Source: Pseudomonadales bacterium
GTDB lineage: Bacteria; Pseudomonadota; Gammaproteobacteria; Pseudomonadales; JBFGWM01
NCBI GenBank assembly: GCA_041682035.1
Contig: JBFKKR010000002.1
Location: 216 to 64,215 of the forward strand
Length of the DNA: 64,000 nucleotides
Reading direction: 5' to 3'
The notes under the pieces are model-generated. The model made no database searches. It was not told the DNA's origin and saw only the letters and a list, made by a program, of their open reading frames with translations. Shown piece after piece: positions 2,499-60,336 of the stretch. The translations under genes and the position numbers were made by a program. How positions within the stretch are numbered: position 1 is the first letter of the stretch; the number at the start of each line of letters is the position of its first letter.

Positions 2499-3611
2499 AT
2501 GAAGAAGTTGTCCAGACGCAATCTGCTTCGCGCCGGGGGTATCTCGCTACTCGGACTCGCCGCCCTCTCCACCCAGCAGATCAGGGTCCGCCAGCAGGTG
2601 CAGGACGAGTTCCGCATCGGGTTCATCTACGTCGGCGCGCGTGACGACTTCGGCTACAACCAGGCCCATGCGATGGCCGCCGCCCGTCTCGCGCGGGAAC
2701 CGAACGTGCGCGTCTTCGAGCAGGACCGGGTGCCTGAAACTGAAGAGGTACTGGCGGTCATGCAGGGCATGATCGAAAACCACGGCGTGCAGGTCATGTT
2801 CCCGACCTCCTACGGCTACTTCGACCCCTACGTGCTGGAAGCGGCGCGCAGCAATCCGGAGGTGCACTTCGTCCACGCGGGCGGACTGTACCTCCCCGGT
2901 CATCCGCAGAACGTCAGTTCCTACTTCGGTTACATCGACGAAGGGATGTTCCTCGCCGGCATCGCCGCCGGCCACGTGACCCAGACCGGCCGACTGGGCT
3001 TCGTCGCCGCCATGAACATCCCCCACGTGCACCGCAACGTCAACGCGTTCCTGCTCGGCGCACGCACGGTGCAGCCGTTCGCCACGCTCGAGGTCCGTTT
3101 CACCGGCGGATGGTTCCTCCCCGAGGCGGAACGGGCCACCTGCAATGCATTGATCGATGCCGGCGCAGACGTCATGACCTGTCACGTGGACAGCCCGCGC
3201 GCGGTGATCGAGACCAGCGGCGGCCGCGGCGTCGCCTGCGTGGGGTACCACTCGGATCTCGCATCGCTGGCGCCGGAACATGTACTGACCAGTGTCCAGT
3301 GGGACTGGTGGCCACTGGTATCGGACTACCTGCGGAAACTGCGGGCGGGTGAGGAGATTCCCCACATGCAACGCCTCGGCATGCGGGAGGGTATTGTGGT
3401 GCTCGCGCCATTCGGACCGCGGGTGCCCCAGGCCGCGCGGCTGCAGATCGCCGGGATGCACCGGAAGTTCCTCGCCGGGCAGCACAGCGTCTACACCGGA
3501 CCGATCTACGACCAGTCCGGTGAGGTGCTGATCCCGACCGGCGTGCAGCGCGAACGGGACGACCCTTGGCTGGAAACCATGGACTGGTTCGTGAAGGGCG
3601 TGCAGGCTTGA
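2499..3611 (+). CDS. BMP-family periplasmic substrate-binding protein, paralogue 2
   Basis: Tat signal LSRRNLLRAGG. It carries the same motif set as 1337-2491 (clearly a tandem paralogue by eye) and starts 7 nt after it. Confidence 0.8.
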   Translation: MKKLSRRNLLRAGGISLLGLAALSTQQIRVRQQVQDEFRIGFIYVGARDDFGYNQAHAMAAARLAREPNVRVFEQDRVPETEEVLAVMQGMIENHGVQVMFPTSYGYFDPYVLEAARSNPEVHFVHAGGLYLPGHPQNVSSYFGYIDEGMFLAGIAAGHVTQTGRLGFVAAMNIPHVHRNVNAFLLGARTVQPFATLEVRFTGGWFLPEAERATCNALIDAGADVMTCHVDSPRAVIETSGGRGVACVGYHSDLASLAPEHVLTSVQWDWWPLVSDYLRKLRAGEEIPHMQRLGMREGIVVLAPFGPRVPQAARLQIAGMHRKFLAGQHSVYTGPIYDQSGEVLIPTGVQRERDDPWLETMDWFVKGVQA

Positions 3612-6145
3612 GCCGCAGCGCAATCCTCGGTCTTCTCCTGACGACACTCATCGGGGTGGCCGGTTCATTCGGCCTCTACCGCATGGCGATGCAGAGCATC
3701 GAGCGCGACGAGCGGGCGGTGTTCATGCGGCTGGCCACCGCGCGCAGCGGCGCCATCGCGCAGCGACTTATTTCGACCCAGGAGAGCGCCATGAACATGC
3801 ATGGCCTCTACAAGGCGTCGGATCACGTCGACCCGCACGAGTTCGAGTTGTTCGGCGATCTGCAGCACCGCAGGCACACGTCCGTCCACGCCCTGCAGTG
3901 GGTGCCGCACGTACCCGGCGGCGAGCGGGCCGCCTACGAGGAGAAAGTCTCGGCCATGCTGCGGACGCCCTTCCGCATCACGGAGATGAACCAGAATGGC
4001 CTGCTGGTGCCGGCCGCTGAACGTCCCGATTACCTGCCGGTGCAGTACGTGGTCCCCTTGAAGGTGAACAAGACGCTCCTGGGGTTCGACCATGGCAGTG
4101 AAGCGGTCGTCCGCAAGACCCTGGAACTGGCGCGGTCCAGCGGGCTCACCCAGGCCACCACGGCGGTCCGGCTGCCACAGGAGATCGACCCGGCGCCTGG
4201 CGTCCTGGTGGTGGAACCGGTGTACCGGGGCAGTCGCAGCACCAGTATCGACCGGCAGAAGAACCTGACGGGATTCGTCATCGCGGTGGTGCGCATCAAG
4301 ACCGTGCTGCAAAACGCCGTGCACAGCCTGAACCAGGCCGATGCACAGATTCACACCGCGCTGTACGACGTCACCAGCGGCGCGGAGCGGTTCCTGTACA
4401 GCTACGGATCCAGTCCGGCCCGGCCCGTTTCCCCGGAATGGTTGCAGGAGACGATCGTGAACTTCGCTGGTCGCACCTGGGCCGTACGCAACCAGCCCAA
4501 CCTGCCCCTGGTGACAGGCATGCAGTGGCAGCCCCTGAGCATGCTGCTGGGCATGCTGACGCTGACGACGGTCGTCTCCATATTCATCTTCACGTTGATG
4601 TACCGGGAACAGCTGGTGTCCATCGCGGTCGCCGAGCGCACCCGCGAACTGCGGCGCAGCGAAGCCCGCATCCGCGGCCTCCTCGACACCGCCACCAACG
4701 CGATTTTCATCCTCGATGACGGCGGGCGCATCGAGAGCAGCAACCAGGCCGCGAACCGCCTGTTCGGCGACGAGGACGATGGCGGGCTGCCTGCGCATTT
4801 CGCCGAACTGTTTCCGGGTGTGCCCGAGAAGCAGCTCCTGCAGGCCTCCAACCAGGAATTCCAGGTCGTCCTGAGAGACCAGGAAAGGCGCTACCTGCAG
4901 GTCTCGGTCAGCAGCACCGGCGCCGAGGGCCAGCAGTCGCGCATCGCCGTCCTGAACGACGTCACGCTCAGGCGCCGCATGGAGAACAACGAGCGCGAGC
5001 AGAAGCTGCTGCTGCAGAACATCATGCGGTCTATGGATGAAGGTCTGCTGGTGTCGCGCGCCGGCCATCCGCTGATGGTCAACCCCAAGACCGAGTCGCT
5101 GTTTCCGAACGCATCCGCGCTGGTCCGGTCCAGGCCGGTGCCCAACCAGGTCGGCTGGCTGGACCCGGAAACGCTGGAGCCGATCCTCGAGGAGAGCCTG
5201 CCGCTGCACCGCATCCTCGTCGGCGAGGAAGTGCAGAACGAGGAGTATTTCATCCAGAACGAGTACCAGCCCGAGGGCGTCCATGTCGAAGTGACCGGCA
5301 ATGCGCTGCTTGACGCGGGCATGCGGCGCATCGGCGCGATGGTGGTGCTGCGTGACATCTCCCACCGCAAGGCATACGAGCGCAGGCTGCAGGAGACCGC
5401 CGCCCAGCTGGCACTCAGCAACCAGGAACTGGAGAGCTTTGCCCGCGCGGCCTCGCACGACCTGCAGGAACCCCTGCGCAAGGTGCAGCGCTTCGGCTCC
5501 CTGCTGCGCATGTCGCGCGCCGACCAACTGGACGAACAGGGGCTGGATTTCCTCGACCGCATGATCAATGCCGCCGACCGCATGTCCGCGCTGATCGACG
5601 GCCTGCTGACGCTGGCGCGGGTCACCTCCAAGGCCGCGCCGTTCTCCTCGACGCGCCTGAATACGGTGCTCAGCGAGGTACTGGAGGACCTGCAGATCCG
5701 GATCGAGGATACCGGCGCCGAGATCGACGCCGGTTCGCTGCCGACCATCGACGCGGACCCGGTGCAGATGCGCCAGCTGTTCCAGAACCTGATCAGCAAC
5801 GGCCTGAAATACCAGCCCGAGGGCAACCGGCCCAAGATCACCATACGCGCGGAACAGCTGATCCGGGCCCGACCGGTCGAGCACCGCTGCTGGAAGCTGA
5901 CCTTCCAGGACAACGGCATCGGCTTCGCACAGGAAGACGCGGGCCGGATTTTCGGCGTGTTCTCGCGCCTGCACGGCCGCGGCGAATACGAGGGCTCCGG
6001 CGTCGGCCTGTCCATCTGCCGCAAGATCGCCGAGCGACATCATGGCGAGATCAGCGCCACCTCGGTGCCGGGCGAGGGCGCCACCTTCACGGTCATCCTG
6101 CCGGAAAATCAGCCCGGCGCCGCCCGCACCCCGGAACCGGCATGA
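3566..6145 (+). CDS. Sensor histidine kinase: TM, periplasmic CHASE domain, TM, 2x PAS, HisKA, HATPase_c. No receiver domain.
   Basis: CHASE-like segment (LQWVPHV..ERAAYE..LPVQYVVPL). H-box FARAASHDLQEPLRKV. G-box GSGVGLSICRKIAERHHGEI. An alternative start at TTG 3608 would overlap the upstream stop as TTGA. Confidence 0.85.
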   Translation: MAGNHGLVREGRAGLSRSAILGLLLTTLIGVAGSFGLYRMAMQSIERDERAVFMRLATARSGAIAQRLISTQESAMNMHGLYKASDHVDPHEFELFGDLQHRRHTSVHALQWVPHVPGGERAAYEEKVSAMLRTPFRITEMNQNGLLVPAAERPDYLPVQYVVPLKVNKTLLGFDHGSEAVVRKTLELARSSGLTQATTAVRLPQEIDPAPGVLVVEPVYRGSRSTSIDRQKNLTGFVIAVVRIKTVLQNAVHSLNQADAQIHTALYDVTSGAERFLYSYGSSPARPVSPEWLQETIVNFAGRTWAVRNQPNLPLVTGMQWQPLSMLLGMLTLTTVVSIFIFTLMYREQLVSIAVAERTRELRRSEARIRGLLDTATNAIFILDDGGRIESSNQAANRLFGDEDDGGLPAHFAELFPGVPEKQLLQASNQEFQVVLRDQERRYLQVSVSSTGAEGQQSRIAVLNDVTLRRRMENNEREQKLLLQNIMRSMDEGLLVSRAGHPLMVNPKTESLFPNASALVRSRPVPNQVGWLDPETLEPILEESLPLHRILVGEEVQNEEYFIQNEYQPEGVHVEVTGNALLDAGMRRIGAMVVLRDISHRKAYERRLQETAAQLALSNQELESFARAASHDLQEPLRKVQRFGSLLRMSRADQLDEQGLDFLDRMINAADRMSALIDGLLTLARVTSKAAPFSSTRLNTVLSEVLEDLQIRIEDTGAEIDAGSLPTIDADPVQMRQLFQNLISNGLKYQPEGNRPKITIRAEQLIRARPVEHRCWKLTFQDNGIGFAQEDAGRIFGVFSRLHGRGEYEGSGVGLSICRKIAERHHGEISATSVPGEGATFTVILPENQPGAARTPEPA

Positions 6146-6499: not shown

Positions 6500-7702
6500 T
6501 TACCCGTCCAGCGCGCGCCGGATGCGTGCGACCCCCTCCTGCAGGCGCGCGATGTCCGTGGTGTAGGCCAGCCGGATGCGGCGGTCTGCCTCCTGCACGC
6601 CGAAATCATCGCCCGGCGTGACAGCGACACCGTGATCCTCCAGCAGGCGACGACAGAACTCCATGGCGCGCTCCCCGGTGGCGCCGATGTCGAGATACAG
6701 GTAGAAGGCGCCGGCGGGATCGGCGAGCAGCGGCAGCGGCAGCGGCGCCAGCGCTTCCAGCAGCGCATCGCGACGCTGCGCGAACCGGGCGCAACGGGCC
6801 TGCAGTTCCTCCTGTACGCCGGGCTCGAAGGCTGCCAGTGCGGCGTACTGTGACGGCGTCGGTGCGGCCAGGTAGATATTCTGCGCCAGCCGCTCCAGCG
6901 CCTCGCCGGCCCAGTCGGGCGCGACCAGCCAGCCAACCCGCCAGCCGGTCATACCGAAATACTTCGAGAAACTGTTGATCACGATCACGTGGTCACCGCA
7001 CCGCAGCGCCGTGCAGGGTTCCCCGCTGTACTGCAGCCCCTGGTAGATCTCGTCGCACAGGACCAGCCCGCCCAGCCCGGCCACGGCATCGCAGATCCGC
7101 CCGAGCTGTTCACCGTCCAGGACCGAACCGGTCGGGTTGGCCGGGCTGGCGAGCATGACCGCGCGGGTACGGCCGGTCCAGTGGCGCGCAATCAGTTCGG
7201 GGGTCAGTTGCCAGTTGTCCGCCGCGCAGACCGGCACCATTACCGGGCGCGCCCCGCTGCACAGCACGAAGCTGCGATTGCACGGATAGCCGGGGTCCGG
7301 CAGCAGCACCTCGTCCCCGGGGCCGAAGAAGCAGGGCGCGATGATCGAGAGCGCGCCCGAGGCGCCCGGCGTGACGAGCACCCTTCCGGGTGCCACCTCC
7401 AGCCCGAACCGCGTGCGGTACCAGTTCGCGATGGCCGCCCTGAGGGCCGGCAGCCCGGCCGCCGGGGTGTAGTGGGTGCGCCCGGCCTGCAGCGCCTCGA
7501 CGCCACGCCGGCAGACCGCTTCCGGTGTCGCAAAATCCGGTTCGCCCACCTCCAGGTGGACGATATCCTGCCCCTGCGCCTCCAGTTCGCGGGCGCGGCC
7601 CAGCAGCGCCATCACGTGGAACGGCCGGACCTCCCGCATGCGCGCGGCGATCGCCCCGGCCCGCCGGTTCCCGGGCTGCCCCGGCCCCGAATGCACTGTC
7701 AC
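6500..7702 (-). CDS. Class I/II PLP-dependent aminotransferase
   Basis: PFHVM..LEVGEPDF, SPANPTG, and SFSKYFGMTGWRVG (the PLP lysine motif). I chose the GTG 7702 start (GGGAG upstream); ATG 7639 is the alternative. The 476-aa ORF in the track is N-terminally over-extended. Confidence 0.85.
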   Translation of the reverse strand: MTVHSGPGQPGNRRAGAIAARMREVRPFHVMALLGRARELEAQGQDIVHLEVGEPDFATPEAVCRRGVEALQAGRTHYTPAAGLPALRAAIANWYRTRFGLEVAPGRVLVTPGASGALSIIAPCFFGPGDEVLLPDPGYPCNRSFVLCSGARPVMVPVCAADNWQLTPELIARHWTGRTRAVMLASPANPTGSVLDGEQLGRICDAVAGLGGLVLCDEIYQGLQYSGEPCTALRCGDHVIVINSFSKYFGMTGWRVGWLVAPDWAGEALERLAQNIYLAAPTPSQYAALAAFEPGVQEELQARCARFAQRRDALLEALAPLPLPLLADPAGAFYLYLDIGATGERAMEFCRRLLEDHGVAVTPGDDFGVQEADRRIRLAYTTDIARLQEGVARIRRALDG

Positions 7703-7951: not shown

Positions 7952-9058
7952 ATGCCAAAGGGCACGAAATCCACGACCAAGAAGACCGGCGCCAGCCGCC
8001 AGGCCACCACCGCCAAGAGCAGCCGGGCCGCCCGGCCAGCCAGAAGCGCCGCGGCTCGCAAGCCCGCCGCAAAGAAGACCGCCACCTCGGCCCGGACGAC
8101 AACGAAAAAACCCGCCCCGCGCAAGAGCGCGGCAGCATCCGTCAAAGAAGCAGTAGCGAAGGCAGTGAAGAAAGTATCCAGCAAGCGGACCGCAACCACC
8201 CCGGCCAAGAAGACCTCCACGGCACGCAAGCCGACGACGGCCGGCAAGACCGCCGCCAGCAAGACCCGGCGCACGACGACGGCCAAGGCTGCCACGCGCA
8301 AGCCGGCCACGAAGGCCAAGGCCGCAGCCGCCGGCAAGGCGAAGACCACGGCACGGGCGGCCACCAAGACCAAGGCGACCGCGAAAAAGACCCCGGTCAG
8401 GAAAACGGGCGCTGCCAGCAGCAAGCCGGCGGCCAAGGCGGCTGCGCCGGCGAAGCCGTCCCGCGCCAGGGCGGCCGCCGCGAAGACGACAACGCGCAAG
8501 CCCTCCGGCACCGCGCGCAAGCCCGCCGCGACCAAGGCCCCGGCGAAGGCTGCCGCCACGCAGAAGAAGCCGGCGGCGCGGAAACCGGCCGGCAGCGCGC
8601 GCCCGAACCCACGGCGCGCCTCGGCGAGCATCCTGTCGGGCCCGATGATGTCGGAAATCCAGCCCTACAAGTCGAAGTCGAACGAAGAGTACATGTCGCG
8701 CGAGCAGCTCGAGCACTTCTCGCAGATTCTCCTGAAGTGGAAGCAGGAACTGATGCAGGAAGTGGATCGCACCATGATCCACATGAAGGAAGAGGCGGCG
8801 AACTTTGCCGACCCGAGCGACCGCGCCACCCAGGAGGAGGAGTTCAGCCTGGAGCTGCGCACCCGCGACCGGGAGCGGAAGCTGATCCGGAAGATCGATG
8901 ACACGCTCGATCTGATCGACCGGGAAGACTACGGTTATTGCGAATCCTGCGGCGTCGAGATCGGCGTCCGTCGCCTCGAGGCACGCCCCACCGCCACGCT
9001 CTGCATCGACTGCAAGACCCTGGCCGAGGTGAAAGAGCGGCAGGTCGGCGGCCGCTAG
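7952..9058 (+). CDS. dksA: RNA polymerase-binding factor DksA with a ~228-aa Lys/Ala/Thr-rich N-terminal extension
   Basis: The C-terminal ~140 aa are near-identical in pattern to E. coli DksA (FADPSDRATQEEEFSLELR, CESCGVEIGVRRLEARPTATLCIDC). ATG 7952 is preceded by GGGAGG. One frame runs uninterrupted through the basic low-complexity region. Confidence 0.8.
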   Translation: MPKGTKSTTKKTGASRQATTAKSSRAARPARSAAARKPAAKKTATSARTTTKKPAPRKSAAASVKEAVAKAVKKVSSKRTATTPAKKTSTARKPTTAGKTAASKTRRTTTAKAATRKPATKAKAAAAGKAKTTARAATKTKATAKKTPVRKTGAASSKPAAKAAAPAKPSRARAAAAKTTTRKPSGTARKPAATKAPAKAAATQKKPAARKPAGSARPNPRRASASILSGPMMSEIQPYKSKSNEEYMSREQLEHFSQILLKWKQELMQEVDRTMIHMKEEAANFADPSDRATQEEEFSLELRTRDRERKLIRKIDDTLDLIDREDYGYCESCGVEIGVRRLEARPTATLCIDCKTLAEVKERQVGGR

Positions 9059-9083: not shown

Positions 9084-10010
9084 ATGGGTCCGGCCCGGCG
9101 CACGGCGGGCGCCGCCATCGTCGGCCGGTTCGCTCCGTCCCCCACGGGCCCCCTGCACTTCGGTTCCCTGTTCGCCGCGCTGGCGAGCTACCTGGATGTC
9201 GCTTCGCGCGGCGGGCGCTGGCTGGTCCGCATCGAGGACATCGACCCCCCGCGCGAGGTAACCGGCGCCCGCCAGGCCATCCTGGAGGCGCTTGCCGCGC
9301 ACGGGCTGAACCCGGTCGAGGATGTCATCTACCAGTCGCACCAGGCGGCACTGCACGATGCGTCGCTGCAGGCACTGGGCCGGGACGGCCACCTGTTCTA
9401 CTGCACCTGCACCCGCAAGGCCCTGGCGGCGGTCCCGGGCCCCTACCCGGGCACCTGCCGCAACCGGCGCGAGCCACCCCGGCGCTCGCACGCGGTGCGG
9501 TTCCGGGTCGCGGAGGGAGCAGCCATCCGCTTCGAAGACGGCATCCTCGGTCCGCAGGTTTTCGAACCGGGGGATCTGGGCGATTTCATCGTGCGCCGGC
9601 GCGACGGGCTGGTGGCCTACCACCTGGCGGTGGTCGCCGACGATGCGGCACAGGGCATCTCCACGATCCTGCGCGGCGCCGACCTGCTGGATTCCACGCC
9701 GCTGCATATCTGCCTGCAACACGCACTGGGACACCCGGTACCGGAGTACCTGCACGTTCCGGTCCTGACCTGTGGCGGCGCCAAGCTGAGCAAGCAGACC
9801 GGCGCTCCCGCCCTCGATGCCACGCGCGCGGCCGAGAACCTGTGCCGGGCGCTCGCCCTGCTTGGCCAGCCGGTGCCCGGCAGCGGGCCGGGCCGCGAGG
9901 TGACGACGCTGCTGAAGACCGCGTGCGCCAACTGGCGGCGCGAGCTGGTCCCCAGGCAGGCGGAGATCGAGCTGGGGCCGGAATTCGGCGATGTCACGGG
10001 CGGTGCATGA
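9084..10010 (+). CDS. gluQ: tRNA glutamyl-Q(34) synthetase (GluQRS)
   Basis: GRFAPSPTGPLHFGSL, RIEDID and a KLSKQ-type motif. It sits immediately downstream of dksA, as in E. coli and Pseudomonas. Confidence 0.85.
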   Translation: MGPARRTAGAAIVGRFAPSPTGPLHFGSLFAALASYLDVASRGGRWLVRIEDIDPPREVTGARQAILEALAAHGLNPVEDVIYQSHQAALHDASLQALGRDGHLFYCTCTRKALAAVPGPYPGTCRNRREPPRRSHAVRFRVAEGAAIRFEDGILGPQVFEPGDLGDFIVRRRDGLVAYHLAVVADDAAQGISTILRGADLLDSTPLHICLQHALGHPVPEYLHVPVLTCGGAKLSKQTGAPALDATRAAENLCRALALLGQPVPGSGPGREVTTLLKTACANWRRELVPRQAEIELGPEFGDVTGGA

Positions 10011-10155
10011 ACTGGCCCTGCCCGGCCCGTTACGGTAGATTGAGGCAAGGAACGCGCAAGGATGCCCGCCCGCCGATGACCGATGTCTTCCTTTCTCCGG
10101 CAGCTGTCGGACGAGACCGGCGCCACCGGAACACCCCCACCGGAATCCAGCCCGC

Positions 10156-11190
10156 ATGAAGCGGCAGGCGCCTGCCCGACCGGATTCCACGCCGACGACC
10201 GTACCGTCCTCTTTCCACGGCATGATCGGCGCGTCGCCGCCCATGCAGGCCGTATTCCGTTATATCGAGCGCGCTGCGCCCACCGACGCCACCGTGCTGA
10301 TCAGCGGTGAAACCGGCACCGGCAAGGAACTGGCGGCGCGTGCGCTGCACGCCCTGAGCAATCGTGACAGCGGCGAATTCATCGCGGTGAACTGCGCGGC
10401 CATCCCGGAAACCCTGGTGGAGGCCGAACTGTTCGGTAACGAGAAGGGCGCGTTCACCGGCGCCGTCAGCAAGCGGCGCGGCCTGGTGGAGGCCGCTGAC
10501 CGCGGCACGCTGTTCCTTGACGAGGTGGGCGAACTGCCACTGGAGGCGCAGGCCCGGCTCCTGCGGGTATTGCAGGAAGGCGAGATCCGGCGCGTCGGCG
10601 CGACGCGCACCAACACGGTCAACGTCCGTATCATCGCCGCAACCCACCGCAACCTGTCCGCCCTGGTGCAGGAGGGTCGTTTCCGCGAGGATCTCTACTT
10701 CCGGCTGAACGTGCTGTCGATCCGCATGCCGCCCCTGCGCGAACGCGCCGAGGACATCCCGGCCCTCGCCGAAAGCCTGCTGCGTCAGCACGCGGCGGGC
10801 CTGCAACGGCCGGTCCGTGGCTTCGAGAGCGAGGCGCTGCGGACGCTGTGCCGGGCGCCGTGGCGCGGCAACGTGCGGGAACTGGACAACGTCATCCACC
10901 GCGCCTGCATCCTCAGCGACAGCCCGGTCATCGCGCAGGGTGATCTGCAGTTCGACGGCGAAGGGGAAGCTGGCGCCGATGACGGCCACGATGTCGCCGA
11001 CTGGCCCCGGCAACTGAGCCTGGAGCAGTACGTGGAGCACTTCCTGCTCGCCAACCAGCACCACATGACCGAGACCGAGATTGCCCAGAACCTGGGCATC
11101 AGCCGCAAGTGCCTGTGGGAGAAGCGTCAGAAACTGGGCATTCCGCGCCGCCAGGCCAGCGAGCGGCGGGGCGAGACGGAACGCGCGTGA
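10156..11190 (+). CDS. Sigma-54-dependent transcriptional activator (bEBP) with an AAA+ domain and Fis-type HTH only. No receiver or sensory domain.
   Basis: Walker A GETGTGKE, GAFTGA loop, Walker B FLDEVG, C-terminal HTH IAQNLGISRKCLWEKRQKLGI. An in-frame TAG at 10036-10038 limits any N-terminal extension to 39 codons. Confidence 0.9.
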   Translation: MKRQAPARPDSTPTTVPSSFHGMIGASPPMQAVFRYIERAAPTDATVLISGETGTGKELAARALHALSNRDSGEFIAVNCAAIPETLVEAELFGNEKGAFTGAVSKRRGLVEAADRGTLFLDEVGELPLEAQARLLRVLQEGEIRRVGATRTNTVNVRIIAATHRNLSALVQEGRFREDLYFRLNVLSIRMPPLRERAEDIPALAESLLRQHAAGLQRPVRGFESEALRTLCRAPWRGNVRELDNVIHRACILSDSPVIAQGDLQFDGEGEAGADDGHDVADWPRQLSLEQYVEHFLLANQHHMTETEIAQNLGISRKCLWEKRQKLGIPRRQASERRGETERA

Positions 11191-11192
11191 AC

Positions 11193-11239
11193 TGTTACCA
11201 ATCGAAACACTTCGCGATTATTTTGACCATCCGGTAACA
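11193..11239. promoter_or_regulatory. Candidate upstream activator sites: TGTTAC (11193-11198) and the inverted GTAACA (11234-11239)
   Basis: The two are exact inverted hexamers about 105-145 bp upstream of the -24/-12 element. They match the CbrB half-site hexamers as I recall them, but the spacing is 35 bp rather than about 12 bp. Confidence 0.4.
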
Positions 11240-11313
11240 CTTTGCGCTTGATTATTGCAGTAATTTCTTCGATAAATATCGTATACCTTTGTATTTATTG
11301 ATTATTTTTTATT

Positions 11314-11329
11314 TGGCACGCAACCTGCA
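11314..11329 (+). promoter_or_regulatory. Sigma-54 (-24/-12) promoter
   Basis: TGGCACGCAACCTGCA compared with the consensus TGGCACG-N4-TTGCW. The GG to GC spacing is exact and there is one mismatch. A visibly AT-rich stretch of about 70 bp precedes it. Confidence 0.7.
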
Positions 11330-11339
11330 CAGCATATCA

Positions 11340-11495
11340 CGCCAAGAGGACACACGCTGCGGCGAAGGCTTTCGGCCAGGGTCACGAGGACCAGAGTCTG
11401 CGGGTGACGAGGCATGGACGCCTCACGGAATAACAACAACAATCCCTTGCTTCAACCTGTGAGGGGAAGCTCTTCGGAGCTTCCTCCTCGTTTTT
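11340..11495 (+). ncRNA. Candidate sigma-54-dependent sRNA, CrcZ-like (Hfq-binding A-rich tract)
   Basis: The predicted start is about 12 nt after the -12 GC. It contains AAUAACAACAACAAU at 11429-11443 and ends at an intrinsic terminator. No credible ORF is present. Its position between the bEBP gene and pcnB mirrors crcZ. Confidence 0.5.
11463..11495 (+). terminator. Intrinsic terminator
   Basis: A 10-bp stem GGGGAAGCUC/GAGCUUCCUC with a UUCG loop, followed by CUCG and U5. Confidence 0.7.
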
Positions 11496-11803
11496 CCGGG
11501 ATGATCCGTTTTCCTGAGTGGCAAAGTCGTGGTAAAAAGACGCCGCGATTCGCCGGCCCATGCAGCAGACCCGCCCACCCCCTCTGCATGGCTGGTCGCG
11601 CCCGGTTTCCCCGGAAACTGTGAGTGCGCCGGCGAAAGGGGCAAGGTCCGCCGATCCGGACCGGCCCCGCAAGCCAGACGGCCCGCCCGATCCAGCCTCG
11701 CCGCCCCCTGGCGCGAAGCGTCGCTGATCGTCGACCCGGAGCGTGCCCGGACCGGTGGCAACTGGAAGGTACCTGGGCTCGCCCGACTGCGAGAGGAGTT
11801 CGC

Positions 11804-13168
11804 GTGAAGGAAATCACGGAATCGGAGCATGGCATCGCGCCTGCACAGATCAATCCGAATGCGCTGGAGATCGTCGAGAGGCTGAACGAGGCGGGCCACG
11901 AGGCCTACCTCGTCGGCGGCTGCCTGCGGGACCTCCTGCTGGGCATCCCGCCCAAGGACTTCGACGTCGCCACGTCGGCGCACCCGGAGCAGGTGCGCTC
12001 GCTGTTCCGGAACTCGCGCCTGATCGGCCGCCGGTTCCGGCTCGCGCACATCCGCCACGGCAGGGAGACCACCGAGGTCGCCACGTTCCGGGCCGGCGGC
12101 GAGCACTGGGACAGCGCCGACAGCGAGGCCGATGCCGAACTGCACGTGGAAACCGGCCGCATCCTGCGGGACAACGTGTACGGCACGCTGGAAACGGACG
12201 CCGCCCGCCGCGACTTCACCATCAACGCGCTGTACCTGCGGCCGGCCGACTGGACCGTGCTGGATTTCAGCGACGGGATCGGCGACCTGCGCAAGAAAAA
12301 GATCCGCGTGCTGGGCACCCCGGCGGAACGCTTCCGCGAAGACCCCGTGCGCATGCTGCGGGCTGCGCGGCTGCAGGCCAAGCTGGGCCTGAAGATCGGC
12401 AGGGAGGAAGAGGAGGCCATCCGCAAGCTGGGCAAGCTGCTGGTGCACGTGCCGCCCGCCCGCCTGTTCGATGAGTACACCAAGCTGTTCATGCACGGCC
12501 ACGCCGTACGGAGCATGGAACTGCTCGACGAGTACGGCCTGACCGAGTACCTGTTCCCGACCCTGGCGGAATACTACCCGGAACAGCCGGAAGTGGCGGC
12601 GCTGGTCCGCCAGGCGCTGGTCAACACCGATGAACGGGTGGCCAACGACCAGCGCATCACGCCCGCATTCCTCATCGCCGTGTTCCTGTGGCCGGAGTTC
12701 CTGGAGCAGCATCGCGCCCAGCTCGACGCCGGCGATTCGCCACTGGAAGCCTGCAACCGCGCGGCGCACGCCGTCATCATGGAGCAGTGCCAGTCGATCA
12801 GCATCCCGAAGCGCTTCAGCATGGTCGTCAAGGACATCTGGGACCTGCAGTTCCGGCTGCCGAACAACGGCAACCGCAAGCGTGCCGTGCAGCTCCTGGA
12901 CCACCGCCGCTTCCGTGCGGCCTACGACTTCCTGCTGTTGCGCGAGATGGCCGGGGAAAACCTCGAAGGCCTGGGCGAATGGTGGACGCACTTCCAGGAG
13001 GAAGATCACGGCCCGCGACCGGAACGGACGGACGAGGACGAAAACGAGGACGAGGAATCCGAAGAGCGCGCGCCGCGCCGGCCGCGCGGTGAGCAGCGGA
13101 GCGAGCAGCCCGCCGGACCGCGCCGCAGACGCCGCCGGCGCCGGCGCCGGCGTCCTGCTCCGGAGTGA
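11804..13168 (+). CDS. pcnB: Poly(A) polymerase I
   Basis: LVGGCLRDLLLG..PKDFDVAT and RRDFTINALY. GTG 11804 has GAGAGGAG 5 nt upstream. The upstream part of the 514-aa ORF is Arg/Pro-rich junk. The C-terminus is an Arg run. Confidence 0.9.
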   Translation: MKEITESEHGIAPAQINPNALEIVERLNEAGHEAYLVGGCLRDLLLGIPPKDFDVATSAHPEQVRSLFRNSRLIGRRFRLAHIRHGRETTEVATFRAGGEHWDSADSEADAELHVETGRILRDNVYGTLETDAARRDFTINALYLRPADWTVLDFSDGIGDLRKKKIRVLGTPAERFREDPVRMLRAARLQAKLGLKIGREEEEAIRKLGKLLVHVPPARLFDEYTKLFMHGHAVRSMELLDEYGLTEYLFPTLAEYYPEQPEVAALVRQALVNTDERVANDQRITPAFLIAVFLWPEFLEQHRAQLDAGDSPLEACNRAAHAVIMEQCQSISIPKRFSMVVKDIWDLQFRLPNNGNRKRAVQLLDHRRFRAAYDFLLLREMAGENLEGLGEWWTHFQEEDHGPRPERTDEDENEDEESEERAPRRPRGEQRSEQPAGPRRRRRRRRRRRPAPE

Positions 13169-32984: not shown

Positions 32985-33844
32985 GGCTCCTCCGCCTCGC
33001 GCACTGCGGCCCAGATCTTCAGGGCGTCCACGGTGGGGCCCACATCGTGCACCCGGATAATACTAGCACCCCGTTCCGCAGCCAGAACGGCCGCGGCGAC
33101 GCTGGCGTGGAGGCGGCCCGCCACCGGCCGGTCCGCCAGCAGCCGGCCGAGCATGGACTTGCGCGAGAGGCCGGCCAGCACGGGAAAGCCGAGCGCGGCG
33201 AATTCCGCCAGGGATGCCAGCAGCGACAGGTTGTGGCCGAGGGTCTTGCCGAAGCCGAAACCGGGATCGAGGCAGATACGCTCGTCGCCGATGCCGGCAG
33301 CACGGCAGGCCGCCACCCGTTCGAGCAGGAAATCGCGCACGTCGGCGACCACGTCGGTGTACTGCGGGTCATCCTGCATGTGCCCCGGCTCGCCCTGCAT
33401 GTGCATCAGGCAGACCCCGGCCGGCGTGGCGGCAACCGCCTCCAGCGCGCCCGGGCGGGTCAGTGCCCGCACATCGTTGACCAGCACCGCGCCCAGCGCG
33501 ATCGCTTCCGTCATGAGTTCCGGCGCACTGGTGTCCACGGAGATGGCGACCGGCAGTTCGGCCGCGATCCGTTCCACCACCGGCAGCACGCGATCCATTT
33601 CCTCCTGCAGGGAAGGCCGGTGCGACCCGGGACGGGTCGATTCACCGCCCACGTCCACGATCATCGCCCCCTCCGCCTGCATGGCCTCGGCGTGACGGAC
33701 GGCGGCATCGAGGAGGGCGCGCCCTTCGCCGTGCCAGCGGCCGCCGTCGAAGAAGGAATCCGGCGTGACGTTGAGTATGCCCATCACCATGGGCAGGCAG
33801 GCGCCGGGGGTACGGCCGGACCAGGGCGGCCGCGACTTGCTCAT
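32981..33844 (-). CDS. folP: Dihydropteroate synthase
   Basis: [25 protein letters not shown] and IRVHDV. ATGA overlaps occur at both ends. Confidence 0.93.
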
Positions 33845-34308
33845 GCCTGCCCGCAGCGGGCCAGCAACTCGACCTCGGCCTCGGTCAGCTGGTCACGCGG
33901 CAGCATGTGGAACAGCGTGGTCATGGGGTAGATGAGCACCATTTCCGGAAACACGCCGACCTTCTTCAGTTCCGCGAAGGTATAGCGCGCCTCGCCATGC
34001 GCGGATTGCAGATGCACGCCGCCTGCCGTGATCTCGAAGAACTGCTCCTGGTGCAGTAGTTCGTTGCGGCGGTAGATGCGGCGGAACATCCAGCGGTTGA
34101 TGGCGGGCGCCAGCAAGAACATGAAGATGATCAGCGCCAGGTAGTAGGACAGGCCGAGCTGGAGCCAGTCGATCTCCCGCCCCTGCAGGATGGGAACGGC
34201 GAGCAGGGGCAGAACGAACAGCGCGACGATCAGCCGGCGGCGCGTCGGCGCGAACGCGTAGACGCTGCCGCGCACGAACTGGTCCTCGGTGATGTGGTAG
34301 CTGCGCAT
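33841..34308 (-). CDS. YcxB-like small membrane protein (family call tentative)
   Basis: 155 aa with two central TM helices and then a ~70-aa soluble domain. Its stop overlaps the folP start as ATGA. Confidence 0.5.
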   Translation of the reverse strand: MRSYHITEDQFVRGSVYAFAPTRRRLIVALFVLPLLAVPILQGREIDWLQLGLSYYLALIIFMFLLAPAINRWMFRRIYRRNELLHQEQFFEITAGGVHLQSAHGEARYTFAELKKVGVFPEMVLIYPMTTLFHMLPRDQLTEAEVELLARCGQA

Positions 34309-34554: not shown

Positions 34555-36489
<1,935 letters not shown>

Positions 36490-36594
36490 GTCGTTCAAAA
36501 TTGCACCCTCACTGCCGGGCGGTCCCCACCGGGGAACCGTCCTCAATATTTCCTGAATTTCAGCTTACACCAGAAGCCCTGTCGCAACCGAACC

Positions 36595-37269
36595 CTACGC
36601 GCCACGGTAACCGCGCGCGAGATAGTAGGTTTCGCGGGACCGGTCCCGCGACGCACGTGGCTTGCGCGTCTTCAGCTGTTCGAACAAGTCCTTGATCTCT
36701 GTGCGAAATGCTTCAATGCCCTCGCCCTGGAACACTTTGACAAGCAAATCCCCGCCGGGTTTCAGGTGTTCCCGCGCGAATTCGAGGGCCAGTTCGGCCA
36801 GCAGCATGGCGCGGGGCTGGTCGATCGCCTTGTTACCACTGATATTGGGGGCCATATCGGACATTACAAGGTCCAGCCGGCGGTCTCCAAGGGCGGCCCG
36901 TATGCCGGCCAGCGCCGCCTCCCCGGTGAAATCACCCTGGATGAAAGCCACCTCGGGCAGCGCATCCATGGGCAGGATGTCGCTGGCGACCACCAGCCCG
37001 CCGGGGCCGACCCAGTCAGCCGCCAGCTGCGACCAGCCGCCCGGCGCGGCGCCGAGGTCCATCACGGCCATGCCCGGCCGGATGATCCGGTCCTTCTCCT
37101 GGATCTCGATCAGCTTGAAGGCGGCGCGGGACCGGTAGCCCTCCCGGCGTGCCGCCTGCACGTATGCATCCGCCTCGTGCTCGTCGATCCAGCGCTGGCT
37201 GCTGCCTGTCCGCTTCGCCACGCCCACTCTCCACGCAACAACGATTTGACTTCGCGCCCGGATTGGCAA
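36595..37269 (-). CDS. rlmE: 23S rRNA (U2552-2'-O)-methyltransferase RlmE/FtsJ
   Basis: SSQRWIDEH..YRSRAAFKL and DLGAAPGGWSQ. The true start may be GTG 37221. Confidence 0.9.
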   Translation of the reverse strand: MPIRARSQIVVAWRVGVAKRTGSSQRWIDEHEADAYVQAARREGYRSRAAFKLIEIQEKDRIIRPGMAVMDLGAAPGGWSQLAADWVGPGGLVVASDILPMDALPEVAFIQGDFTGEAALAGIRAALGDRRLDLVMSDMAPNISGNKAIDQPRAMLLAELALEFAREHLKPGGDLLVKVFQGEGIEAFRTEIKDLFEQLKTRKPRASRDRSRETYYLARGYRGA

Positions 37270-37329
37270 AGGCTCTCACCGAGCCGTGCCTGCCGACGGC
37301 CGCCTCCATTTTACTGTGTGCTGGCGGTG

Positions 37330-39633
37330 ATGATGAAAAAACTCCTGCTGCTGGTCCTGGTCGTCGTCATCGGCATCCCCGCCCTCCTCTTCGGGTGGAT
37401 CCTGGTCGACCGGGAACTGAACCCCACCACCTTCGAGACCATCGGCGAATACAGCCAGGCGCCGATCCCGCCGGAGCGCCGCCGGGATGCCGCGCTGCGG
37501 CAACAGGCCGCCCGCAGTGCACTCGGCGTCGCCGACGGCCGGCAGATCCTGTTCGGCGACCTGCACGTGCACACCACTTTCTCCATCGACGCCTTCACCT
37601 GGAGTCTGCCATCCATGCACGGCACCGGCCTGCACCCGCCGGCGGACGCCTGCGATTACGCGCGGTTCTGCTCCCAGCTGGATTTCTGGTCCACCAATGA
37701 CCACTCGGAAGGACTGACGCCGCGCCACTGGGAAATGATCCGCGACAACGTCAATCAATGTAACGCGCTGTCGGGCGACCCCGCCGACCCGGAAATGGTG
37801 ACCTTCCTCGGCTGGGAGTGGACCCAGATGGGCAACACGCCCGAGGCGCATTACGGCCACCGCGTGGTGGTGATGAAGGACGAGGAGCGCGAGCGGACGC
37901 CGGCGCGGCCGATCATGTCGGGCGGGCTGGCGGTGAGCGCCATGCGCAAGGACTCCATCCCGCCGCTGCAGAAGCTCACCGCGCCCTATCTCGGCATGCC
38001 ATTCAATGCCGAGAACCGCCAGATGCTGCGCAACCTCTACGCCAAGCAGGATTACCTGCGCGCGCAGGAACTGTGCAGCAACGACGTGCCGTCGCCCGAC
38101 CTGCCGCAGAACTGCATGGAGTACGCCGACACGCCGGGCGACCTGCAGCGCAAGCTGCGCGAGTGGGGTTTCCCGGCGCTGGTCATCCCGCACGGCACCA
38201 CGTGGGGCTACTACACGCCCCCCGGCACGAAGTGGGACAAGCAGCTCAGCCGCGACATGCACGACCCGGCGCTGCAGGCCCTGATCGAGGTGTTCTCCGG
38301 ACACGGCAATTCCGAGGAGTACCGCGACTGGCGGGCCGTGGATTTCGCCGCGGACGGCTCGATGTCCTGCCCGGAGCCCACCGGCGATTACACACCGTGC
38401 TGCCATCGCGCCGGCGAGATCATCCAGTCGCGCTGTGAGGACCCGTCCTCGACGGAATGCGCGGCCCGCGTGGCAACAGCCGAGATCAATTACCTGCAGG
38501 CCGGCCGGGGCGGCCGGCTGACGGTGCCTGACGTGGCGCCGGAGGAATGGCTGAACTGCGGCCAGTGCACCGACTGCTACATGCCCGCCTTCAATTTCCG
38601 GCCCGGAAATTCCGTGCAGTACATCATGCAGCTCGCCAACCACGCCGAGCAGGACGCCAACGGCGATCCGTTGCGGTTCCGCTTCGGTTTCATCGGCTCC
38701 AGCGACAACCACCTGGCGCAACCGGGCGTGGGCTACAAGGAAGTGGACCGGCACCTGAACACCGATACTTCCGGCCTCGCCACGAAATTCCTGAACGACC
38801 AGCTGCACCGTGTCGCCGAACCGCAGACCGATCCGCGCCACTCGGTGGCACTGGATTTGGAAAACACGCCCTTCAATTTCCTGCAGGTCAACGAGTCGGA
38901 ACGGCAGTCCGCGTTTTTCATGACCGGCGGGCTGGTGGCAGTCCACAGCCCCGCGCGTGACCGCGACACGATCTTCAGCGCTTTGCAGCAGAAAGAGGTG
39001 TACGGCACTTCCGGCCCGCGCATCCTCCTGTGGTTCGACCTGCTGCAGCCGGACGGCACCACGCTGCCCATGGGCAGCGGGCTGAAGACCGGCGCCGCGC
39101 CGCGCTTCCGGGTCCGCGCCGCCGGTTCCTACGTCCAGAAGCCGGGCTGCCCGCAGGAGAGCATCGATGCGCTCGGCGCGGAACGGCTGGAGCACATGTG
39201 CGGCGGGGAATGCTACAACCCCGGGGACGCACGCATCCCGATCGAGCGCATCGAGGTCGTTCGCATCCGCCCGCGCCTGAACGACAGCGAGCCGGCCGGC
39301 CGGCTGATCGAGGACCCGTGGAAGGTCATCCCCTGCGACACCGGCGCCGACGGCTGCAGCGTGGAGTTCAGTGACCCGGAATACGCCACCGCGGGCCGCG
39401 ACACGCTCTACTATGTGCGCGCGCTGCAGGTCCCCACGCCGACGGTCAACGGCAAGCCGCTGCAGTGCGTGAAGGAGGACGCCAACGGCCGTTGCGCCGA
39501 GGTGAAGATCTGCTGGGGCGACCAGCGTACCGAACTGGACGATGACTGCCTGGAAGATGTCAGCGAGCGCGCCTGGTCCTCGCCGATCTTCCTGGATTAT
39601 GCCCGGGTTTCCGCAGCGCCCCCGACGGACTGA
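37330..39633 (+). CDS. DUF3604-like / PHP-type metal-dependent phosphoesterase-like protein with an N-terminal membrane anchor
   Basis: 767 aa. MMKKLLLLVLVVVIGIPALLF, GDLHVHTTFSIDA, FWSTNDHSE and FLGWEWTQ. The family call is from memory of the DUF3604 motif pattern. Confidence 0.6.
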   Translation: MMKKLLLLVLVVVIGIPALLFGWILVDRELNPTTFETIGEYSQAPIPPERRRDAALRQQAARSALGVADGRQILFGDLHVHTTFSIDAFTWSLPSMHGTGLHPPADACDYARFCSQLDFWSTNDHSEGLTPRHWEMIRDNVNQCNALSGDPADPEMVTFLGWEWTQMGNTPEAHYGHRVVVMKDEERERTPARPIMSGGLAVSAMRKDSIPPLQKLTAPYLGMPFNAENRQMLRNLYAKQDYLRAQELCSNDVPSPDLPQNCMEYADTPGDLQRKLREWGFPALVIPHGTTWGYYTPPGTKWDKQLSRDMHDPALQALIEVFSGHGNSEEYRDWRAVDFAADGSMSCPEPTGDYTPCCHRAGEIIQSRCEDPSSTECAARVATAEINYLQAGRGGRLTVPDVAPEEWLNCGQCTDCYMPAFNFRPGNSVQYIMQLANHAEQDANGDPLRFRFGFIGSSDNHLAQPGVGYKEVDRHLNTDTSGLATKFLNDQLHRVAEPQTDPRHSVALDLENTPFNFLQVNESERQSAFFMTGGLVAVHSPARDRDTIFSALQQKEVYGTSGPRILLWFDLLQPDGTTLPMGSGLKTGAAPRFRVRAAGSYVQKPGCPQESIDALGAERLEHMCGGECYNPGDARIPIERIEVVRIRPRLNDSEPAGRLIEDPWKVIPCDTGADGCSVEFSDPEYATAGRDTLYYVRALQVPTPTVNGKPLQCVKEDANGRCAEVKICWGDQRTELDDDCLEDVSERAWSSPIFLDYARVSAAPPTD

Positions 39634-42878: not shown

Positions 42879-42923
42879 GCGACTTCACTTCAATCGGGCT
42901 TGCAATGCAGGACAGCGCCCAGT

Positions 42924-44399
42924 ATGCACTGGCTAAATCTTGAGCGGAAGCCGCGCGCAACGCGACCAGCGGTGCTGATTACACTGTGCGCGGCGACACC
43001 GGCCCTCGCACACGTGTTCGGCAGCACCTACACCCCGCCCGTCCCGGTGGTTTATTACCAGGCCGGCGCGGCGGCCGCGCTCCTGCTTTCCTTCGTCGTC
43101 GCCGCGTGGTTGTTGCGCTCACCCACACTGTCGCGATCCGGCGGTTCAGTCTCAATCTCGCTGGATCGCGCTCCGAAACCAACTCGGTTCCTGGTGCTGT
43201 GCCTACAGCTGGCCGGTGTCGCGCTGCTGCTGCTGGCGGTCTGCAGTGGATTCCTCGGCACGCCCAACCCTTACCTCAACTTCAGCATGACCGGCTTCTG
43301 GGTCGTATTCGTGCTCGGCTTCCTCTACGCGCACGTGGTGTTCGGCAATCTGCTGGAGCCGCTCAATCCCTGGCGGACGGTCTGCACCTGGAGCGGCAGG
43401 CTGGCGCCGGGCATGTTTCGCGGCAGGCTGCGCGACCCGGCCCGGTACGGGTACCTTCCCGCGCTGGTGCTCTACATCGCGTTCATCTGGTTCGAACTGT
43501 ATGGCGCGGGCGCACCAGTCCATACCGCACGCCTGCTGCTCGGCTATACGATCGTCTGCCTGGCCGGCGCCTTGATCTGGGGCGTGCCTGGCTGGCTGCG
43601 CTACGGGGAATTGTTCTCGGTGCTGTTCCGGCTGGTCTCGCACCTGGCGCCGCTGGCACGGTGCGGCGGGACGCTGATCCTGCGCTGGCCGCTGGCAGGA
43701 CTGCTGCGGGCGCGCACCGACGGGCTGTCACACCTGCTGTTCATCCTGTTCATGCTGGCCTCGACCGCGTTCGACGGCCTGCAGTCGATGATCTCCTGGC
43801 TGGAGATGACATGGAGTTTCCTGCGCGCCGCGCTGGCCGACGCCGTCGCCGCCAACCCTGCCGGGGCGGTGAGCCTGCTGCAGACCGCCTTCAAGGTGTA
43901 CCACGGTGTCGGGCTGGTGCTGGCGCCGTTCTGGTATTTCCTCGTCTACCAGCTGGCGCTGGCGCTGGCGCGGGCGATCGCCGGCAGCCGGCACAGCTTC
44001 CGCGACTGGCTGCTGGCATTCGGCATGTCCCTGGTGCCGATCGCCGTGGTGTACCACGCAGCCCATTACTACACGCTGCTGCAGGTGCAGGGGCTAAAAG
44101 TGTTCCCCCTGCTCTCGGACCCGTTCGGCCAGGGCCGCGACCTGCTGGGCACCCTGCACTGGTTCCACCGGCCGATCTATCCCGATCCGCCGACCGTCTG
44201 GAACGCACAGGTAGCGCTGATCCTGCTGGGGCACCTGCTGGGGGTGCTGGTCGCACACATCGCCGCGCTGCGGTTGCTGCGTGGCACCTGCAGCCGGCCA
44301 CGCCTGATCGCCAGCCAGCTGCCGCTGCTGCTGCTGATGGTGGTGCTGACCGTGTTCGGGCTGTGGATCCTGGCGCAGCCGGCCGCGACGGGGCGGTGA
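42924..44399 (+). CDS. Hypothetical polytopic membrane protein (about 10-12 TM), family not recognised
   Basis: 491 aa taken from the tail of the 1050-aa ORF in the track. The signal-like N-terminus ends ..TPALA|HVFG. It is divergent from 41160-42878 with a 45-bp spacer. Confidence 0.55.
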   Translation: MHWLNLERKPRATRPAVLITLCAATPALAHVFGSTYTPPVPVVYYQAGAAAALLLSFVVAAWLLRSPTLSRSGGSVSISLDRAPKPTRFLVLCLQLAGVALLLLAVCSGFLGTPNPYLNFSMTGFWVVFVLGFLYAHVVFGNLLEPLNPWRTVCTWSGRLAPGMFRGRLRDPARYGYLPALVLYIAFIWFELYGAGAPVHTARLLLGYTIVCLAGALIWGVPGWLRYGELFSVLFRLVSHLAPLARCGGTLILRWPLAGLLRARTDGLSHLLFILFMLASTAFDGLQSMISWLEMTWSFLRAALADAVAANPAGAVSLLQTAFKVYHGVGLVLAPFWYFLVYQLALALARAIAGSRHSFRDWLLAFGMSLVPIAVVYHAAHYYTLLQVQGLKVFPLLSDPFGQGRDLLGTLHWFHRPIYPDPPTVWNAQVALILLGHLLGVLVAHIAALRLLRGTCSRPRLIASQLPLLLLMVVLTVFGLWILAQPAATGR

Positions 44400-60242: not shown

Positions 60243-60336
60243 AACGGCACCCGCGCCCGGTCAGGAAGCTGACATTCTCGGGGAATTGCCCCGGCCACTC
60301 AAGCTGGCCACGGGAGCGAGCGCGTATAATCCGGCC

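Follow-up and report, generated by a model that had tools for sequence, protein, structure and literature searches.

The 64,000-nucleotide stretch analysed here, referred to below as the window, belongs to contig JBFKKR010000002.1 of an uncultured Pseudomonadales bacterium and carries a gene for a bacterial enhancer-binding protein (bEBP) between gluQ and pcnB. Searches for kinases, partner proteins, hfq, and Crc cover these 64 kb. The gene order at the locus is aminotransferase (reverse strand), dksA, gluQ, the activator gene, a predicted small RNA (sRNA), pcnB, folK, dNK, panB, panC, panD, pgi, and acs. The gluQ gene (9084–10010, +; glutamyl-Q tRNA(Asp) synthetase, Pfam tRNA-synt_1c) ends with a TGA stop codon at 10008–10010 and lies directly upstream of the activator gene, separated by a gap of 145 bp; cbrA is not adjacent. 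The activator gene (10156–11190, +) encodes a protein of 344 amino acids (aa), composed of a linker-like tail of 22 residues, an AAA+ sigma-54 interaction domain, a lid, and a CbrB-type helix-turn-helix (HTH); it is identified below as an orthologue of CbrB without the receiver (REC) domain. CbrB is the NtrC-family, sigma-54-dependent response regulator of the Pseudomonas CbrA/CbrB carbon-control system and activates crcZ and crcY; its cognate kinase CbrA joins an SLC5 transporter part to PAS and histidine kinase domains. Downstream of the sRNA, pcnB (11804–13168, +) codes for poly(A) polymerase with Pfam PolyA_pol domains; its GTG start is conserved across lineages and is the same as that of the called gene in L001.

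Pfam identified Sigma54_activat at residues 23–189 (242 bits) and AAA_lid_14 at residues 195–267 of the activator. The Walker A (GETGTGKE), GAFTGA, and Walker B (LFLDE) motifs as well as the arginine and sensor positions are invariant in alignments with CbrB homologues, in agreement with the complete AAA+ core described in the initial annotation. The Fis-type HTH reported there is also borne out, though its Pfam HTH_8 score of 18.6 bits is below the cut-off of 22. Despite this score, the HTH is almost identical to the CbrB DNA-binding helix (LGISRKCLWEKRQKLGIPR), and the CbrB motif MTETE(I/L)A..LGISRKCLWE(K/R)RQ(K/R)LGIPR is nearly invariant in all aligned CbrB-family sequences, the window protein included. 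The short tail ahead of the AAA+ domain was correctly noted, but its length is 22 residues and not about 25.

The reading frame offers no room for a REC domain, as had been proposed from the gluQ stop codon at 10010 and an in-frame TAG at 10036–10038. The TAG is in frame with the activator gene, and no ATG, GTG, or TTG codon occurs between it and position 10156. The N-terminal extension could comprise at most 39 codons and is therefore too short for a REC domain of approximately 115 aa. No Pfam match to Response_reg was obtained for the activator or for the maximal reading frame (10039–11187). The proposed absence of a frameshifted REC remnant was upheld by tblastn with three REC domains, one of them from a 70%-identical relative, which gave no matches in any frame near 9–10.2 kb. 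The phospho-acceptor aspartate (Asp52 of CbrB) is missing from the window protein together with the receiver. Likewise, no cbrA-like kinase was found in the window: tblastn with two CbrA proteins revealed no SLC5/transporter part, and the matches were limited to weak, generic similarities to the kinase core at 5333–6142 and 60866–61609, which belong to two unrelated kinases.

Three clusters without a REC domain were returned by the database search, namely the window protein, P0002 (81% identity), and P0003 (80%). The next matches, P0004 (70%, 450 aa; carried by L003 and L087) and P0005 (60%, 447 aa; carried by L005, L006, and L088), possess REC, as do all of the >110 further CbrB-type proteins (445–487 aa). 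The REC-bearing matches include named CbrB proteins of Azotobacter and Kistimonas and homologues from Pseudomonas, Marinobacter, Halopseudomonas, Hahella, and Zooshikella. Best matches outside the REC-less clade included CbrB of Azotobacter, Pseudomonas, Marinobacter, and Kistimonas, with 55–60% identity over >90% of the query. Identity to Pseudomonas CbrB is 61% in the AAA+ core and 72% in the DNA-binding domain.

In a neighbor-joining tree of the AAA+-to-HTH region, the activator was placed inside the CbrB clade and separate from 11 generic bEBPs, which excludes membership in an unrelated REC-less family. The three REC-less sequences were monophyletic, with P0004 as their sister. Some of the loci from a genome contig search with generic AAA+ peptides of the activator served as outgroups of this tree; the search yielded only unrelated bEBPs (43–59% identity) and no close relatives. 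The scores rank PspF (200–257 bits) below NtrC, ZraR, NifA, and FleQ types (257–344 bits) and all of these below CbrB (385–400 bits); no equivalog cut-off was reached.

Affiliation with PspF/HrpS was considered and rejected on scores. The NCBIfam pspF models gave 257 and 218 bits, under their cut-offs of 444 and 529, respectively, and the PspF structure in PDB scored 202 bits versus 257–267 bits for ZraR, NifA, FleQ, and NtrC1.

Gene order gave the decisive evidence for CbrB orthology, as judged from the contigs compared. On the Pseudomonas control contig L089, the order is aminotransferase (reverse strand), dksA, gluQ, cbrX, cbrA (983 aa), cbrB, CrcZ, pcnB, folK, panB, panC, panD, and pgi. 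The order given for Pseudomonas in the initial annotation thus proved correct, with cbrX to be added ahead of cbrA. The chromosomal position of the activator gene also matches that in L090. The gluQ gene is likewise located upstream in L002, L003, L087, L088, and L089, with cbrX and cbrA intervening before cbrB in Pseudomonas. An Endozoicomonas-like contig carries a cbrA gene (994 aa) immediately 5' of cbrB. Since cbrA stands beside cbrB in both Pseudomonas and the Endozoicomonas-like contig, its presence at the locus is ancestral. By synteny, tree position, and the DNA-binding domain, the activator is a true CbrB orthologue and not a relative of PspF or HrpS.

The target module of the activator is intact by prediction, with its elements in the right order. 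A CbrB-type enhancer, TGTTAC-N35-GTAACA with an internal GAAACA, starts right after the stop codon (11193–11239, +). It is unique in the window, with 0.01 occurrences expected by chance, and its half-sites are invariant in five lineages. An AT-rich spacer of 74 nt (11240–11313, +) separates the enhancer from the promoter and may serve in bending or as an IHF region; inspection by eye revealed no exact consensus for IHF. The putative sigma-54 promoter TGGCAC-N5-CTGCA (11314–11329, +; GG at 11315–11316 and GC at 11327–11328) is the sole match in the window and is conserved in five lineages. It is followed, in the position of crcZ, by the predicted sRNA of approximately 155 nt (11340–11495, +), the 5' end of which is deduced from the promoter. 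This sRNA is strongly conserved, with most of its core being invariant. Its A-rich motif AAUAACAACAACAA (11429–11442, +) is made up of repeated ARN triplets, resembling the 'CA motif' type bound by Hfq/Crc, is present in all lineages, and is unique in the window (0.00 expected). An intrinsic terminator (11463–11495, +) with a 10-bp stem and a T run completes the unit, and the stem displays compensatory changes between lineages.

The published CbrB consensus is TGTTAC-N12-14-GTAACA-N15-19-GTAACA (PMC8871633). The corresponding sites of crcZ in L089 read TGTTAC-N14-GTAACA-N15-GTAACG, followed by 76 nt to TGGCAC. The outer sites (F1 to R2) span 47 bp at both loci; from there to the promoter, the distances are 74 nt in the window and 76 nt in L089, a difference of 2 nt. 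The middle subsite is displaced in the window: a conserved GAAACA is located 6 nt past F1, instead of a GTAACA after 12–14 nt. Thus, the locus resembles that of Pseudomonas and Azotobacter cbrB in its place between gluQ and pcnB and in the downstream TGTTAC/GTAACA sites, the spacer of about 75 nt, the sigma-54 promoter, and the A-rich sRNA, as the proteins do in their AAA+ and DNA-binding domains. It differs in lacking the receiver and Asp52, in the absence of adjacent cbrA and cbrX, and in the displaced middle enhancer subsite. In L089, Rfam called a 'P36' sRNA at 7446–7505, a span that coincides exactly with the enhancer sites for CbrB upstream of crcZ; what this model describes may be the enhancer and terminator region and not an RNA of its own.

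The sRNA shares with CrcZ, CrcY, and CrcX, the Hfq/Crc-titrating RNAs of Pseudomonadaceae, a place after cbrB, a CbrB/sigma-54-type promoter, an A-rich AANAANAA-type motif, and an intrinsic terminator. Unlike CrcZ, it has a length of approximately 155 nt versus approximately 400 nt and one extended A-rich motif versus several. The Rfam model of CrcZ (RF01675) gave no match to L002, L087, or L088, nor to the window, where E values as high as 10 were allowed, whereas CrcZ was recognised in the positive control L089 with 306 bits. No known Rfam family was assigned to the window sRNA at gathering or permissive thresholds. A metagenome contig search with the conserved sRNA core retrieved one unrelated low-GC contig (L091) and no further lineage members. 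The window sRNA contains one block of five ARN triplets, while two blocks are present in the L005/L088 lineage. The sRNA of this P0005 lineage (L088, 11490–11600, and L005) carries an additional segment at the 5' side, in which there are a hairpin and another A-rich motif, GAACAACAATAACAAG; therefore, members of this sRNA family differ in how many A-rich motifs they have. Just past the terminator, the block CAAAGTCGTGGTAAAAAGACGCCGC (11522–11546, +) is conserved in four lineages. It may be a promoter or leader element of pcnB, and TGGTAAAAA within it resembles an extended -10 element.

Four sequence variants of the 344-aa form of the activator were found; they are spread over at least six contigs of NCBI and Logan assemblies, always with the reading frame intact. 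Two more REC-less lineages, with approximately 80% aa identity, are represented by L002, from another metagenome-assembled genome, and L004, from an SRA run. Read from the upstream in-frame ATG, their proteins begin with a linker-like tail of 17–22 residues that ends in FHGM. The spacing between gluQ and the start codon is 119–146 bp in all REC-less loci. Pairwise dN/dS values among the three REC-less genes are 0.09–0.17, with synonymous differences of 0.52–0.76 per site, which is near saturation. The activator gene is under strong purifying selection, and the low dN/dS at nearly saturated synonymous sites means that the truncated gene has long been maintained by selection. Judged from these comparisons, the REC-less form is a real domain loss, old and selected.

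A further mark of the REC-less clade is found in the lid. The motif WPGNVREL is kept in every other aligned CbrB-family sequence, including P0004, P0005, and the CbrB proteins, and reads WRGNVREL only in the window cluster, L002, and L004 (Arg237; codon 10864–10866, +). This change may be a compensatory adaptation or the mark of a new interface.

Comparison with the REC-bearing relatives suggests that the receiver was lost in a stepwise manner. In these relatives (L003/L087 and L005/L006/L088), gluQ is also directly upstream of the activator gene, and the locus has no cbrA. Over a wider range, the genes are arranged as in the window: two Bmp proteins, a CHASE-PAS kinase, a Rieske protein, aminotransferase, a long DksA, GluQ, activator, PcnB, and onward. 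The REC domains of Kistimonas, Marinobacter, and Hahella CbrB share 70% identity with that of Pseudomonas, at 70–73% identity in AAA+; an adjacent cbrA is present in P0006, a close Kistimonas relative and the only one checked. The corresponding values are 31% and 67% for the P0005 clade and 29% and 58% for the P0004 clade, both without cbrA beside cbrB. Thus, REC identity drops from 70% to 29–31%, while that of AAA+ holds at 58–73%. The acidic pocket, the phospho-acceptor Asp, the Thr/Ser, and the Lys of the receiver are retained in the P0005 clade (eight sequences). All five sequences of the P0004 clade retain the Asp, with Thr/Ser replaced by Ala and Lys by His, and the Pfam REC score is 33 bits for P0004 versus 53 bits for P0005.

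The NusA copy in the window shares 87% identity with a copy putatively of the P0004 clade, 77% with the next match, and at most 70% with those of named Pseudomonadales (Motiliproteus, Zooshikella, Halieaceae, and Marinobacter). As far as these identities go, NusA agrees with the branching order of the activator. The activator is therefore vertically inherited and belongs to a deep, uncultured branch. Since the REC-bearing relatives already have no cbrA at the locus, the losses of cbrA and of REC are separate, sequential events. The proposed order is departure of cbrA from the locus, divergence of REC, loss of the REC switch residues, and, finally, deletion of REC, so that the loss of REC looks like the end of a decay whose first stage was the departure of cbrA. 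The picture drawn in the initial annotation, a REC-less activator in the cbrB position of a locus devoid of cbrA, is retained; our view differs in treating the two losses as distinct and successive.

Two kinases in the window deserve a separate description. An orphan CHASE-PAS-HisKA-HATPase kinase of 859 aa (3566–6145, +) is encoded after two Bmp/PnrA-like binding proteins and before the Rieske protein. Its location, 4 kb upstream of the activator gene, is common to REC-less and REC-bearing relatives, and it might once have been the kinase of the REC-bearing forms. As a replacement kinase it was rejected, because its synteny in both groups is uninformative and a kinase is irrelevant for a receiver-less protein. 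The other, a multi-pass membrane PAS-HisKA-HATPase kinase of 634 aa (60797–62698, −), matches the CbrA kinase core better than anything else in the window (28% identity, E 2e-12). Its gene is followed on the same strand by that of an SNF-family sodium symporter (58875–60242, −). These separate kinase and symporter genes (58875–62698) loosely echo the fused SLC5-kinase design of CbrA.

The region between gluQ and the activator start was compared among lineages. A TAGATT box (10036–10041, +), a possible -10 element, includes the in-frame TAG. The sequence TAGATTG follows gluQ closely both in the REC-less loci and in L003, which bears REC; because its conservation extends past the REC-less loci, the TAG is part of a conserved non-coding block and not a recent nonsense mutation. 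A simple scan called no sigma-70 promoter upstream of the activator gene, and the box is considered here as a conserved motif only. The leader block CGCGCAAGGATGCCCGC (10053–10069, +) is conserved in the alignment of the window, L002, and L004. Besides TAGATTG, the non-coding DNA 3' of gluQ that is shared by the REC-less loci and L003 includes an upstream ATG in a conserved CnATGA context; the CGCGCAAGGATGCaCGC block is common to the REC-less loci in addition to these elements.

An upstream open reading frame (uORF) of 27 codons was detected by script at 10076–10159 (+), with its TGA overlapping the activator ATG (ATGA). Similar uORFs occur in L002 (9897–9947, 16 codons, overlap TAATG), L004 (547–627, 26 codons, ATGA), and the REC-bearing L003 (2137–2244) and L087 (6679–6786), the latter two having 35 codons and the overlap TGATG. 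A start-overlapping uORF is thus found in four lineages, REC-less and REC-bearing; it is missing from the P0005 lineage. By comparison, 2–3% of random ATGs in the window give such an open reading frame. Translational coupling of the uORF to the activator is likely in view of this arrangement. A cbrX–cbrA overlap has been described in P. putida (PMC8871633). It is alike in form only, since cbrX-like peptides are longer and hydrophobic. Together, these features of the 5' region indicate that REC was probably removed in an in-frame deletion, with the native 5' region, the start codon, and the presumed coupling to the leader reading frame left in place.

With moderate confidence, we regard the protein as a CbrB orthologue with its receiver removed that acts as a phosphorylation-independent activator with dosage-set output, at the end of the decay that set in with the departure of cbrA. 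The activator would bind the TGTTAC/GTAACA sites, oligomerise on DNA, and spend ATP to open the sigma-54 promoter. This promoter would drive a CrcZ-like RNA, which in turn would titrate Hfq and, if present, Crc. Tblastn found no hfq in the window, and Pfam scans of the open reading frames picked there found no Crc-like EEP domain. Without the receiver, control by phosphorylation would be lost, leaving a naturally 'unlocked' activator. Its output would then be set by the amount of activator (through its own promoter and the start-overlapping uORF), the availability of sigma-54, DNA bending, and RNA turnover.

With less confidence, we take the activity to be constitutive and dosage-set by now; in favour of this, the protein leaves no possibility of phosphorylation, the locus has acquired no partner gene, and CbrB of P. 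putida is reported to depend barely on phosphorylation. The latter protein is reported to be monomeric and 'barely dependent on phosphorylation' at crcZ, whose basal level is described as high and which is induced at low CbrB~P (PMC6296734, PMC8871633). The rewiring of the carbon-control circuit suggested in the initial annotation is correspondingly reduced in scale: with CbrB already so little dependent on phosphorylation at crcZ (PMC6296734), the step is smaller than wholesale rewiring.

Several observations weigh against such an activator being simply competent and constitutive. The linker between REC and AAA+ in CbrB is long, of low complexity (Pro/Ala/Ser-rich), and NtrC-like. In NtrC, the phosphorylated receiver promotes assembly, and removal of the receiver does not activate the protein. 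With a flexible linker of this type, the bare CbrB core might therefore be a weak activator unless compensating changes occurred, and the WPGN to WRGN change in the REC-less clade hints at such an adaptation. The sRNA is not matched by the Rfam model of CrcZ, and it carries a single extended A-rich motif in place of five or six. The uORF peptides are unrelated between lineages, so that the coupling is deduced from geometry alone. Finally, DNA binding, ATPase activity, and transcription by the activator are predictions from sequence.

Known bEBPs offer partial parallels. Like the window protein, PspF and HrpR/HrpS consist of an AAA+ core and an HTH preceded by a short N-terminal tail only, and in all of them the lack of an N-terminal regulatory domain makes control in cis by phosphorylation or a ligand impossible. 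Unlike these proteins, the window protein falls outside their families by score, and its domain loss is recent and can be followed inside a single lineage of orthologues. Receiver-deleted DctD and NtrC1 are engineered constitutive activators, and FleQ and FlbD are bEBPs with degenerate receivers. These examples show that an NtrC-family AAA+/HTH core can be active when it is not phosphorylated and that a receiver can degenerate in an activator that keeps its function; degenerate receivers of the FleQ/FlbD type resemble those of the P0004 clade (Thr to Ala, Lys to His). However, the receiver of DctD and NtrC1 is made a repressor of assembly by a helical coiled-coil linker, unlike the long Pro/Ala/Ser-rich linkers of the CbrB family. 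Because of this difference, the effect of receiver deletion in CbrB is not predictable by analogy. The window protein thus appears to work like a bEBP without a regulatory domain while being, by descent as reconstructed here, a CbrB that fails two defining features of that family, the receiver and the adjacent CbrA.

These parallels also bear on a different explanation, in which a competent REC-less activator is held in check by a protein encoded elsewhere, such as an AAA+-binding negative regulator or a stand-alone sensor, and carbon status is sensed via this new partner. Control in trans is classical for bEBPs without a regulatory domain (PspF by PspA, HrpRS by HrpV), and the Pro to Arg exchange in the lid motif, specific to the clade, could stem from a new interface. 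We nevertheless consider this explanation rather unlikely. No gene was gained at the locus, where REC-bearing and REC-less relatives have an identical order, and the activator is unrelated to PspF or HrpS beyond the common AAA+ fold. Among the open reading frames picked across the window, Pfam scans revealed neither PspA/IM30 nor a REC protein or other obvious partner, and no pspA- or hrpV-like gene neighbours the activator gene. Still more doubtful, in our opinion, is the broader proposal that the CbrB-to-sRNA switch has gained a different input, either through a uORF tying activator synthesis to translation or nutrient status or through a partner docking on the altered lid (WRGN).

It is very improbable that the truncated gene is an inactive, decaying relic of a dismantled Cbr system, with the downstream RNA expressed otherwise or not at all. 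Such a relic would fit the disappearance of both cbrA and REC and an sRNA that is far shorter than CrcZ and fails its Rfam model, but not the dN/dS of 0.09–0.17 between lineages with nearly saturated synonymous sites, the invariant catalytic motifs, the reading frame intact on at least six contigs, or the conservation of enhancer half-sites, sigma-54 promoter, and sRNA core in all lineages. A receiver dropped by an assembly or sequencing error, or a gene split by a frameshift, is hardly credible even for error-prone metagenome-assembled genomes, because independent assemblies of three diverged lineages (the four NCBI/Logan variants and the approximately 80%-identical L002 and L004) have the same architecture, the spacing to gluQ is 119–146 bp throughout, no frame shows REC similarity, and the upstream non-coding blocks are those found ahead of REC in the REC-bearing sister clade.

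The preferred reading, a CbrB orthologue that works without its receiver, is of relevance for the evolution of carbon control. CbrA and CbrB stand at the top of carbon catabolite repression in Pseudomonas, and to our knowledge the signal sensed by CbrA is still unknown. The CbrB-to-A-rich-sRNA half of the cascade appears to be present in a deep, uncultured branch of the Pseudomonadales; a review regards CbrA/CbrB as unique to Pseudomonadaceae (PMC8871633). This half seems to outlast first the kinase and then the receiver, which suggests that it can stand alone. The locus may be seen as a natural version of the receiver-deletion experiment and fits the observation that CbrB is barely phosphorylation-dependent at crcZ. 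Together with its relatives, it provides a graded natural series (canonical, degenerate, and absent) for the action of the receiver on the AAA+ core. If a new sensory input was indeed acquired, the locus would represent a naturally re-plumbed carbon-control circuit that shows the indispensable part of the Cbr cascade. The reach of these results is limited by the fact that the organisms are known as metagenome bins only and that bEBPs without a regulatory domain are an already recognised class. In the searchable literature, we found no REC-less or receiver-deleted CbrB and no CbrB/CrcZ-like modules in such lineages.

Among the other genes of the window, dksA (7952–9058, +) encodes an unusually long protein of 368 aa, in which the DksA_N and zinc-finger module occupies residues 252–358. 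The N-terminal extension of approximately 250 aa is rich in Lys, Ala, and Thr, a composition similar to that of histone H1 and AlgP. Long DksA proteins are also encoded in the relatives (345–385 aa); Pseudomonas DksA has 147 aa. The region 20882–58053 contains, in this order, pnp, truB, rbfA, infB, nusA, rimP, tRNAs, secG, tpiA, glmM and, further on, greA, carB, carA, dapB, dnaJ, dnaK, grpE, recN, and fur. This order presumably matches the region after cbrB-pcnB in Pseudomonas aeruginosa; if so, synteny reaches far past the locus. Amid this housekeeping region, three large coding-like open reading frames are located at 33047–33931, 35113–39633, and 41247–44399 (all +). Those of 294 and 1050 aa have no Pfam domain, and the one of 1506 aa displays only a partial match to DUF3604.

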